Positions 33,657-35,506 of a DNA stretch of 64,000 nucleotides are shown here, one piece after another. Source of the stretch: Escherichia phage vB_EcoM_ASO1B; sequence record MZ726792.1. One strand, written 5' to 3'. The notes beneath the pieces were generated by a model, which saw nothing but the letters and a program-made list of their open reading frames with translations, was not told the DNA's origin and made no database searches. Each line of letters opens with the position of its first letter. Positions within the stretch are counted from its first letter, which is position 1. Both the position numbers and the translations under genes were made by a program.

Positions 33657-33719
33657 CTCAAAGTTATATTAAATTTTGTATGACGTTGAGTATAAAAATA
33701 AGCTATAACACCTGAACTG

Positions 33720-34040
33720 TCAACAGATTTTATAGCTTATTTGGCAGATTTTTTATAAGGCTACTGCCATCCTTCCATACATCACCTTACCTTACCTCAC
33801 CTGACCTGACCTGACCCTACCTAACATTACCGTGCCACACCTCACTTAAAAACCCTCTTAAAAGACTCTTAAGTGATGTAATCGAATTTTAATGTAGCTC
33901 CGATTAACTACCCATACCTTACTCCGCCTCACCTTACCTAACCGTACCGTACCATACCTGACATAACCGTGCCTTACCTTATTAAAAGACCCTCTTTAAA
34001 GACCTTTTAAAAAGGAGCCTCCGAAGAGGCTACCTAGTCA
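33720..34040. repeat. non-coding repeat region A: degenerate ACCTNAC-type pyrimidine-rich repeats plus conserved boxes; paralogous to region B
   Basis: Shares three boxes with 35100-35465 (box 1 AAAACCCTCTTAAAAGACTCTTAAGTGATGT, box 2 TTTTAATGTAGCTCCGATTAACTACCC, box 3 TTATTAAAAGACCCTCTTTAAAGACCTTTTAAAAAGG) in different order. Confidence 0.8.
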
Positions 34041-34042
34041 AC

Positions 34043-34483
34043 TTAGAAAGGTTTTCTGCGTTGCTTGTTAATATTAGCTTTCATAGCAGCTAAGTGATTT
34101 TGCTGTTCAATCAGTCGTGAACGTTCTTGATGACTAAGTGCCATAGTGTTCACATTCTCAATCGCTTGAGTGGCTTGCTTTAAAGCACGACCAATCTTAC
34201 CAGACATTTTGCGTTTTGCAATAGTTGCTTGATGCTTAGGTTCAACCACACGATAACCAACACCCATTGAAGCAACCAGATAAATCTTCTCTTCTTTAAG
34301 AAGTTTTTCAATAAACTTTTCAAGTCGGTTTAGACGTGTAAGCGCATAAGCCTTCATTTCATCTTCGTACTTAACAATGTCACCTTGATAAGTTGGCTTC
34401 ACAATACCTAAGAAGGTGTCCATCTCAGAATGTGATACAGTGTCACCGTAACTAAACTTTGCTGCTAATGCTTTTGTATTCAT
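34043..34483 (-). CDS. hypothetical protein (146 aa, basic C-terminus) in repeat-flanked cassette
   Basis: ORF in track; followed on - strand by a hairpin (AGCCTCTTCGGAGGCT) and short T-run. Confidence 0.55.
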   Translation of the reverse strand: MNTKALAAKFSYGDTVSHSEMDTFLGIVKPTYQGDIVKYEDEMKAYALTRLNRLEKFIEKLLKEEKIYLVASMGVGYRVVEPKHQATIAKRKMSGKIGRALKQATQAIENVNTMALSHQERSRLIEQQNHLAAMKANINKQRRKPF

Positions 34484-34485
34484 AA

Positions 34486-35088
34486 TTAAACGTTACCTTC
34501 TGAAATAACTTCTACAGAAAAACGACCAAAGCGTGGACGCCAATCACCTACACCACAAAGGTTACCAGCATTTTCAAGAACCATTAGAAGCTCCTCTTTG
34601 GTGATTTGCTCTTCATCGAACATCAATCCAAACTCTACAGACCAGTCACGGAAGATTGGACGGTAGCTCATAACTCGTGCTGTACCAATCTTAACAGACT
34701 TAGCATAGATGAAGTCTGGATTCTTAGCAAGTTCTTGTGGGTTTGCTGGACAGTTCTTGATAGTCATTGGGAAGACTACATCTGTCAGCATAATGGCTCG
34801 GTCAATTACCTTACCAAGTTTGTTGAGTTTCGCACCAGACTTGATGCAAGCCTCAATCATCTCACCGTTCATAACAAAACCTAGTTGCTCATCGTAGTAA
34901 CAAGAAGTTACCAGTTGGCTTTCTGCTAAGAGCGCATAGTCTTCGTCAGTCTTTTTACGTTTACTGGACAGAGACTTGTGATATTTAGTCAGAGGGTTTA
35001 ATGGGTCTGACAGTGTATCGTTATGGCTCAGGAAAGGACGAGTACCAGTGATTTTGATATTTAACAGTTTCATAGCATTTAGCTCCAC
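34486..35088 (-). CDS. hypothetical protein (200 aa) in repeat-flanked cassette
   Basis: ORF in track, tightly coupled to 34043-34483. Confidence 0.55.
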
Positions 35089-35099
35089 ACTTTAGTTGA

Positions 35100-35465
35100 T
35101 TGTTAAGTTGTTTGTAAAGAACCCTCAACAGAAGACTCTTTAGAAACTTGGTAGATTTTTAACGTGGCTACTACCATCCACCCATACCTCACCTCACTTA
35201 ACCTCACCCTACCACACCAGACATCACCTTACCATACAGCACCTTATTAAAAGACCCTCTTAAAGACCTTTTAAAAAGGTAAGTCTCATTTTAATGTAGC
35301 TGAGACTAACTACCCGCACTTTACCGCACCGGACCTTACCGGACCGCACATCACCGCACTAAACCAGACATCACATTACCTGACCACACCAAACCAAACA
35401 TCACATTACTTAAAAACCCTCTTAGAAGACTCTTAAGTGATGTTGGTGAGTACCCGTTGGTTTAT
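35100..35465. repeat. non-coding repeat region B (paralogue of region A, modules rearranged)
   Basis: Contains the same three conserved boxes as region A interleaved with ACC/CAC-rich degenerate repeats. Confidence 0.8.
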
Positions 35466-35506
35466 GCTGCTCAGTATACTCACCAAATTTTCTATGTCAA
35501 CAACTT

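Follow-up and report, generated by a model that had tools for sequence, protein, structure and literature searches.

The locus holds two genes and four array-plus-tail units

This study concerns a locus on the - strand of a 64,000-nucleotide (nt) stretch of the genome of Escherichia phage vB_EcoM_ASO1B (sequence record MZ726792.1; the whole stretch is called the window below). At positions 33695-35500, two adjacent genes are bracketed by arrays of short repeats, and we are highly confident that together they form a complete type II VIPR (Viral Interference Programmable Repeat) system of the SUSP1 clade in the genome of a Felix O1-like phage. With 3.7 kb surrounding the locus as query, 259 phage records matched at 80-99% identity, nearly all of them Escherichia, Salmonella, Shigella or Citrobacter phages or Felixounavirus by name, and judged from its sequence the window is that of a Felix O1-like myovirus of the genus Felixounavirus. 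Over the upstream intergenic region, the window and Salmonella phage SeKF_63 are 100% identical. The module sits in a leftward-transcribed block that leads from the DNA polymerase gene through the ligase gene to those of DHFR and thymidylate synthase, and its neighbours are the ligase gene, a regulator and nucleotide-metabolism genes.

The original prediction, made from the letters alone, had singled out two - strand open reading frames (ORFs) at 34486-35088 and 34043-34483, bracketed by two repeat regions that share boxes in different order, interleaved with repeats rich in GGT on the coding strand. Both ORFs exist, and the shuffled boxes and interleaved repeats were confirmed on both sides. 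Three details had to be revised. The first gene, given as 200 amino acids from GTG 35088, more likely starts at ATG 35073 (195 amino acids), since PHROG 4652 matches this form end to end and the residue numbering of SUSP1 Vipr fits it. The repeat unit is a 5-nt NNGGY (N, any base; Y, pyrimidine) and not a 7-nt ACCTNAC. Finally, the two regions resolve into four array-plus-tail units, two per side. Read on the - strand, the ligase stop is followed by promoter P1, box A1 with a 16-pentamer array and tail B1a, box A2 with 11 pentamers and tail B2a, a degenerate box A, vipr, vap1, a terminator, box A2 with 12 pentamers and tail B1b, box A1 with 12 pentamers and tail B2b, promoter P2 and a gene for a 129-amino-acid protein (Table 1).

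Table 1. Features of the locus, in - strand order, and sites in vipr matched by solo guides of related phages (window coordinates)
Feature	Position	Strand	Description
Promoter P1	35473..35500	-	TTGACA-16-TATACT; directly after ligase stop; 11/12 in consensus scan
Box A1	35398..35443	-	Hairpin spacer before vrRNA1; ACATCAC...CTTAAGAGTCTTCTAAGAGGGTTTTTAAG...GTGATGT, folds as a long hairpin; in nearly all loci
vrRNA1 tract	35318..35397	-	16 pentamers; NN: TT TT GT CA AA GA CT TT GC GA GC CC AA CC GC AA
vrRNA1 tail, type B1a	35278..35317	-	Pseudoknot GUAG:CUAC and hairpin AGUCUCA:UGAGACU, then U-run
Box A2	35241..35279	-	Conserved spacer before vrRNA2; shared repeat family
vrRNA2 tract	35186..35240	-	11 pentamers; NN: GC AT AA GA CT GT AG GA TA GA GA
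vrRNA2 tail, type B2a	35147..35185	-	Pseudoknot GUGG:CCAC and hairpin GGUAG:CUACC
Degenerate box A (Ap)	35089..35143	-	Ap itself at 35110-35143; overlaps weak promoter-like site 35089-35118; vipr ribosome-binding site follows
vipr	34486..35073	-	195 amino acids; RAMP-fold protein, homologue of SUSP1 Vipr
vap1	34043..34483	-	146 amino acids; starts 3 nt after vipr stop; 145/146 identical to SUSP1 vap1
Intrinsic terminator	34009..34034	-	After vap1; GGTAGCCTC-TTCG-GAGGCTCC and T5; kept in all cassette-bearing loci
Box A2, downstream copy	33976..34015	-	Before vrRNA3; shared repeat family
vrRNA3 tract	33916..33975	-	12 pentamers; NN: AA AC TA CA AT AC AC TA AA GA GG AA
vrRNA3 tail, type B1b	33878..33915	-	Hairpin AAUCGGA:UUCGAUU, compensatory relative to B1a
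Box A1, downstream copy	33839..33879	-	Before vrRNA4; shared repeat family
vrRNA4 tract	33779..33838	-	12 pentamers; NN: GT AC AA TA AG CA CA CA GA AA AA GA
vrRNA4 tail, type B2b	33739..33778	-	Pseudoknot AAGG:CCUU and hairpin GGCAG:CUGCC
Promoter P2	33695..33723	-	TTGACA-17-TATTTT; serves the 129-amino-acid gene; distal border of module
Si3-type solo guide site	34577-34605	-	In vipr; 20/20 with corrected guide boundaries; 0/300 shuffled guides reach this score in 64 kb
EC6-type solo guide site	35009-35034	+	In vipr; 16/18 with corrected guide boundaries
L016-type solo guide site	34949-34977	-	In vipr; 17/20 with corrected guide boundaries
ULIM9-type solo guide site	34681-34712	-	In vipr; 19/22 with corrected guide boundaries

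The arrays keep a GGY register around free dinucleotides

Each of the four arrays is a strictly periodic run of NNGGY with a conserved tail at its 3' end. Allowing at most one mismatch, GGTNNGGTNNGGTNNGGT gave 30 matches in the window, all on the - strand and within 33779-33968 and 35186-35400, against 0.08 in shuffles. A period-5 GT scan of the whole window (cut-off 7) recovered the same four arrays with scores of 10-12 and none on the + strand, and Tandem Repeats Finder saw period 5 nowhere except in these arrays. The claim that nothing else in the window is alike therefore held in the period-5 and motif scans, bar one marginal stretch at 39543-39611 whose score lay just at the cut-off.

We then compared the arrays across 42 related loci. 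Over 61 unique arrays of related phages, position 4 of the pentamer was G in 91-98%, position 5 was a pyrimidine in 96-100% and position 3 was G in 68-84%, and all 16 NN dinucleotides were used. Among the arrays of the related loci, 54 of 65 were unique. Their lengths vary by multiples of 5, so that the register from box A to tail is kept, and the guides differ almost fully between phages with 90-99% identical flanking genes while GGY and the 5-nt register persist. A conserved register and GGY combined with free NN positions point to selection for GGY at a fixed period, with NN either carrying information or simply free, and a conserved DNA site would not be expected to behave in this way. One guide departs from the general diversity: that of vrRNA4 recurs in several phages (e.g., loci L001, L006, L011, L017, L024 and L028) with changes of 1-2 pentamers or of copy number, unlike most guides, which suggests a widely shared target.

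The tails were described by one structural model, an H-type pseudoknot (4 bp) followed by a hairpin (5-7 bp), fitted on 16 tail variants, among which the B1b-type hairpin takes the form AAUCGGA:UYCGAUU. Nine of the 11 pairs changed on both sides, and 90% of cells were paired against 28-40% when the partner was slid; this covariation rests on four tail types and hence on few independent events. Boxes and tails combine as A1-B1 and A2-B2 upstream of the genes and as A2-B1 and A1-B2 downstream. The degenerate box Ap was present in every cassette-bearing locus and in none without the cassette. When the whole window was searched against Rfam, tRNAs alone reached the gathering score, and in the region nothing credible appeared up to an E-value of 10.

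P1 is kept in all loci examined, and in phage AYO145A its counterpart carries a promoter annotation. Transcription of the upstream vrRNAs presumably starts here and may continue into vipr-vap by read-through; both this role and the read-through are our inference, and so is any function of the box A hairpins, which might serve in processing or insulation. The -10 element of P1 is enclosed by an inverted repeat (GGTGAGTA...TACTCACC; 35445-35484, - strand), as is the -35 element of P2 (AAATAAGCTATAA...TTATAGCTTATTT; 33696-33742), and the single promoter of locus L023 has an analogous inverted repeat of other sequence (CATAGCAAGT...ACTTGCTATG). These repeats may be operators or 5' untranslated region hairpins for the 129-amino-acid gene.

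The two proteins match Vipr and Vap1 of phage SUSP1

This type of locus is not new, as it was described in preprints of April-June 2026. The type II VIPR of Escherichia phage SUSP1 is the representative locus: Vipr is a RAMP of ~20 kDa, vap an accessory protein, and each vrRNA, ~100 nt long, strings together 9-16 YNNGG repeats and closes with an invariant tail of ~40 nt that includes a pseudoknot (bioRxiv 10.64898/2026.04.26.720920). Vipr polymerises along the GGY motifs, the NN dinucleotides specify double-stranded DNA with every third base skipped, and binding represses transcription, the natural targets being located on competing mobile elements; by small-RNA sequencing and pull-down, the arrays of SUSP1 were shown to give rise to small RNAs recovered together with Vipr (bioRxiv 10.64898/2026.04.26.720920). 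By cryo-electron microscopy, one Vipr protomer occupies each repeat in a gapped R-loop triplex, H17, D177, R138, W178, E71, M72, R179 and C173 hold the flipped-out bases of GGY, and K33 contacts the target backbone beside the skipped base (bioRxiv 10.64898/2026.04.26.720927).

The window protein is identical to SUSP1 Vipr at 191 of 195 residues (97.9% by tblastn), above the 90% that delimits the clade, with substitutions at residues 18, 119, 189 and 190. It is a ~20 kDa protein with the RAMP fold expected of a Vipr, built on a single RRM core with a glycine-rich loop and a thumb. Nine of the 10 residues named in the structure paper stand at the same numbers in the window protein; at the tenth, the paper's 'T175', SUSP1 and the window alike have V175. 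Pfam returned nothing for Vipr, for vap1 or for ten distant vap1 relatives out of the 234 found with phmmer, and the two PHROGs concerned, 4652 and 5926, are both of 'unknown function'. The original verdict that the proteins show no recognisable motif was thus right for Pfam and wrong for the fold, one of the two being a RAMP. These comparisons establish the identities of both genes and the RAMP fold of Vipr. The protein is at least 95% identical at the amino-acid level in 116 of the 117 Felix-like records that carry it, and Vipr and vap1 are under strong purifying selection. For SUSP1, vap1 is reported to increase protection, and DNA binding is predicted for it (bioRxiv 10.64898/2026.04.26.720920).

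The likeness to SUSP1 extends to the whole locus: the two genes stand in the same order, in the same slot between the DNA ligase and 129-amino-acid genes, and the NNGGY grammar, tail types and box A spacers are shared. The differences lie in the arrangement of the vrRNAs, two upstream and two downstream in the window against one and three in SUSP1, in the four substituted residues of Vipr, of which residue 18 lies where the solo guide of a rival phage matches vipr, and in the guides. No window array is identical to any array recovered from SUSP1, and the targets presumably differ for this reason.

On the model of SUSP1, P1 would transcribe two vrRNAs and then vipr and vap1, with two more vrRNAs lying after the operon terminator. 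Each vrRNA would consist of 11-16 NNGGY pentamers capped by the pseudoknotted 3' tail, and each pentamer would be covered by one protomer of Vipr, a minimal Cas7-like RAMP, that sequesters the flipped-out GGY and presents the two variable bases. The resulting filament would read double-stranded DNA as an R-loop triplex, with NN pairing to two target bases and the third skipped. Its binding would repress transcription of the target, with vap1 enhancing the effect, and the targets of the clade would be mainly a satellite phage, given that 18 of the 20 identified for the SUSP1 clade lie on one (bioRxiv 10.64898/2026.04.26.720920). The repeat grammar and the tail structure in this scheme were established here; expression and processing of the vrRNAs, ribonucleoprotein formation, DNA binding and silencing are carried over by analogy from the 98%-identical SUSP1 system.

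Natural guide matches support the one-base-skip rule, and the four guides of the locus show no self-match in the window

The code predicts that NN pairs are read on the target with one target base skipped per triplet (xNN, 1-nt skip). We scanned 54 natural arrays, written as NN strings, against the window and 34 loci, counting as hits matches of at least 85%. The 1-nt skip gave 51 hits, and none was obtained with a 0-nt skip, a 2-nt skip or shuffled guides; the rule is thereby supported on natural sequences. Within the window, the four guides of the locus reached at best 63-71% in the xNN reading, a level that the controls with 0-nt and 2-nt skips also gave, so that no self-targeting was seen within the window. 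Likewise, published systems show no self-targeting, and their targets lie in E. coli genomes (bioRxiv 10.64898/2026.04.26.720920).

Guides of VIPR-bearing phages gave no match above 73% to any vipr-vap cassette and nothing above controls in the complete genome of the vipr-less phage Si3, and those of two-unit vipr-less phages did not match the cassette. A BLAST search with tails and box A for satellite-borne vrRNAs in 5,426 E. coli genomes returned no match.

Phages without the cassette carry solo guides that match vipr

Vipr is present in only ~117 of ~259 Felix-like records, and phages bearing the cassette have 1-3 units per side; the early suspicion of a recombination-prone accessory cassette proved well founded. 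Some relatives, such as BPS17W1, have two units and no cassette. In some Felixounaviruses, such as Si3 and EC6, one unit lies between duplicated promoters, again with no cassette. More distant relatives, with a ligase 85-88% identical, have a lone promoter and neither boxes nor arrays nor cassette. In three loci (L022, L023 and L025, at about 5100-5300), the ligase gene and the homologue of the 129-amino-acid gene are separated by a single promoter, which was compared with window positions 33640-33725 and 35445-35506: its upstream half is P1-like and its downstream half P2-like. The whole vrRNA/VIPR module thus lies inside a duplicated promoter, as if inserted there.

The single units of the phages that lost, or never had, vipr and vap, which we call solo units, occupy the same slot and have the same promoter, box A and tail. 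All 51 hits of the 1-nt-skip scan fell inside vipr, and they came from three guides, all belonging to cassette-less phages. Eight further single-unit phages extended the target sites in vipr to four, located at amino acids 15-22 on the antisense strand and at amino acids 33-41, 120-130 and 156-165 on the sense strand. The solo guides were taken from loci L003/L027 (Si3), L005/L032 (EC6), L016, L037, L039-L041, L043 and L044. Four of the five solo-guide families match vipr, and for each of the four guide types the best match in the whole window falls in this gene. At three of the four sites, including the perfectly matched site of the Si3-type guide, the skipped base is the wobble position of the codon. 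The Si3 complete genome holds no vipr or vap homologue, as searched with tblastn and a Vipr profile. The solo arrays keep xGY in 98% of their pentamers, which indicates that they are not decaying.

We lean, by a modest margin of belief, towards regarding the solo units as anti-VIPR guides, which in a mixed infection would load onto the Vipr of a rival, silence the rival's vipr-vap operon and also soak up protomers. The preprint text describes, for Pseudomonas, vrRNAs directed against other VIPR systems, and it also describes vrRNA-carrying satellites (bioRxiv 10.64898/2026.04.26.720920); solo anti-vipr guides in vipr-less phages appear to be unmentioned in it. One of the four differences from SUSP1 Vipr touches these sites: residue 18 (codon 35018-35020) is Asn (AAC) in the window and Ala (GCT) in SUSP1 and several others. 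With Asn at this position, the EC6-type solo guide loses two NN matches (14/16 instead of 16/16), and other VIPR-bearing phages have more changes at the site, with the match down to 12/16. The substitution may be escape variation, or merely lineage history.

Weighing the assignment against other readings

Several observations count against the assignment to VIPR. Expression of vrRNAs has been demonstrated for SUSP1, and its counterpart in this phage is the strong upstream promoter alone. The consensus scan identified no promoter for vrRNA3 and vrRNA4, both of which lie 3' of the intrinsic terminator. With 16 repeats, or 18-19 counting the pentamers inside box A1, vrRNA1 stands at the top of or beyond the reported range. 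The first G is missing in about a quarter of the pentamers; substitutions in GGY abolish silencing, yet internal degeneracy is frequent in the described systems (bioRxiv preprint on VIPR). The single-sequence model of vap1 is of low confidence (pLDDT 68), and its best Foldseek match, to winged-helix regulators, is not significant (E 0.23). Exact gapped patterns of 10-11 units from vrRNA2, vrRNA3 and vrRNA4 had no match in IMG/VR or GTDB genomes, and neither had that of SUSP1 vrRNA1; these searches took exact matches only, and IMG/VR and the GTDB representatives hold no strain-level Salmonella or E. coli pangenome, which makes this a weak negative. Finally, the VIPR literature consists of two unreviewed preprints from one group.

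The missing targets bear most directly on the possibility that the locus is a VIPR remnant, intact in sequence and non-functional here, or has a role other than SUSP1-type satellite repression. That the closest record is the Salmonella phage SeKF_63, with published targets in E. coli genomes, could be read in the same way. Against this, the strong purifying selection on Vipr and vap1, the intact contact residues and a GGY conservation in the window arrays that equals that of the clade are not what a remnant would show, and the target searches carry the limits just given. We consider a remnant improbable.

Still less probable is that the arrays act in cis, as leader or trailer RNAs (attenuators, ribosome standby sites or Shine-Dalgarno mimics) that regulate only the cassette or the downstream gene, an option that had also been raised from the letters. 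The upstream arrays do lie between P1 and the vipr start, many pentamers (GAGGU, AAGGU) are Shine-Dalgarno-like, and the B1a tail with its U-run resembles a terminator. However, the same units occur 3' of the cassette terminator and in phages devoid of the cassette, and the latter leaves no room for a function confined to regulating the cassette. Moreover, hypervariable NN in a conserved register is unexpected of a cis structure, and the near-perfect gapped complementarity of the solo units to a gene in other genomes indicates guides acting in trans.

The reading given the least credence among these is that the arrays are protein-binding sites at the DNA level, namely origin iterons or a partition or packaging site, including an R-loop-prone G-rich origin or an array of primase sites. 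The locus lies amid replication genes (DNA polymerase, ligase, primase-helicase), its G-rich non-template strand directly follows a strong promoter, and several public assemblies break there. In addition, some pentamers, such as GGGTC and TGGTC, resemble T7-type primase sites. Yet iterons, which are several copies of one sequence of ~17-22 bp bound as double-stranded DNA by an initiator or ParB from a nearby gene, conserve the whole site, whereas here NN is almost wholly different between close phages with GGY and register kept; the unit is 5 nt with two free positions. The arrays all have one orientation, each tied to a covarying RNA pseudoknot, and distant relatives have the same replication genes without any arrays. 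GC skew follows the direction of transcription with no feature at the locus, and the assembly breaks are of the repeat-caused kind, the sole annotation there being a short tandem repeat. Neither of the two proteins, one of them a RAMP, gives a Pfam or functional PHROG match that would make it a Rep- or ParB-like gene, and the Felix O1 genome paper makes no mention of these repeats. Lastly, in SUSP1 the near-identical arrays yield small RNAs that are pulled down with Vipr. On the strength of the SUSP1 experiments, the iteron, origin, partition or packaging site envisaged in the original prediction would instead be a set of trans-acting guide RNAs (vrRNAs). Its more general idea of protein-binding arrays survives in another form, as the 98%-identical SUSP1 locus implies that a RAMP protein binds the repeats along their length.

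Other candidates were also set aside. Class 1 CRISPR-Cas is excluded by the lack of a repeat-spacer array in the window, where Vipr is the only RAMP-fold protein identified. Type III toxin-antitoxin systems have tandem RNA repeats of ~34-45 nt, a terminator and an endoribonuclease toxin gene; a ToxIN-like system does not fit a 5-nt unit in modules of 130-160 nt, nor a RAMP fold with nothing ToxN-like among the fold matches. Physical genome ends or a packaging site, suggested by the breaks in phages warpig and momo, were rejected, the warpig feature being a 41-bp tandem repeat and the break repeat-caused. None of the remaining ideas (an R-loop origin, T7-type primase sites, Chi-like hot spots, G-quadruplexes, Shine-Dalgarno sponges, a TRAP-like ring-protein site, sigma-70 or elemental pause arrays, BREX or restriction decoys, pentapeptide-repeat coding) explains GGY, hypervariable NN and a covarying tail together.

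Neighboring features

The 129-amino-acid gene directly 3' of the module (33267-33656, - strand) encodes a protein whose N-terminal segment, MFMKKILLAAAMVMAMSLPVNA, resembles a signal peptide; it corresponds to PHROG 4332, of unknown function, and is kept even in relatives without vrRNA units. Two records break in the repeat region, MN850637.1 (warpig) at its start and MN850580.1 (momo) at its end, and in others short spurious 'hypothetical protein' ORFs have been called across the arrays. Evidently, the vrRNA arrays disturb assembly and annotation.

Elsewhere in the window, 23 tRNA genes cluster at 993-6141 (+ strand), in keeping with a Felix O1-like phage. A 171-amino-acid ORF that is homing endonuclease-like (38042-38557, - strand) closely follows the DNA polymerase gene. 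The Si3 record splits the polymerase into two annotated coding sequences, with an unannotated gap of ~760 bp between them and an HNH endonuclease gene just downstream. The content of introns and homing endonucleases near the polymerase seems to vary among relatives.

Discussion

In VIPR, a class of RNA-guided DNA recognition that was reported only recently, one 20-kDa RAMP and a guide of ~100 nt read their target with a gapped, two-in-three code; the system has been proposed to predate CRISPR. With the Cas7-family RAMPs of class 1 CRISPR-Cas (Csm3, Cmr4), Vipr shares the fold, with its RRM core, glycine-rich loop and thumb, and the principle of one protomer per fixed length of guide, periodic thumb-induced base flipping and a variable guide attached to a conserved handle. 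By contrast, the window has no repeat-spacer array and no cas1, cas2 or other cas genes. The VIPR period is 5 nt, of which three bases are sequestered and two read, with 1 nt of the target skipped; the guides are hard-wired rather than acquired, and the output is transcriptional repression, not cleavage. A second likeness is to TRAP, which binds 11 G/UAG triplets with 2-3 nt spacing in the trp leader as a closed ring and regulates its own operon leader in cis. Both involve an oligomeric protein, a conserved triplet and a period of ~5 nt on single-stranded RNA, but the spacer bases of TRAP carry no information.

The locus was picked out from raw sequence alone, and its repeat grammar is thus visible without tools. 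In the public Felix O1-like records that we inspected it is unannotated, and some of the phages concerned are used for typing and biocontrol. Assigning it gives an annotation to two 'hypothetical' genes and ~700 nt of 'non-coding' DNA and yields a list of four guide codes. Since the locus type is known, its interest now lies in this correct annotation, in the four guide codes of an apparently intact locus and in the candidate solo anti-vipr guides of its relatives. Viruses also carry mini-CRISPR arrays or solitary repeat units that are used against competing viruses or CRISPR. Solo vrRNAs resemble these in that the element carries the guide part only and the effector is made by others; they differ in that their predicted target is the rival's effector gene, vipr, itself. 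If confirmed, solo guides would represent an RNA-only countermeasure to an RNA-guided system and a natural test case for the trans-loading of vrRNAs.

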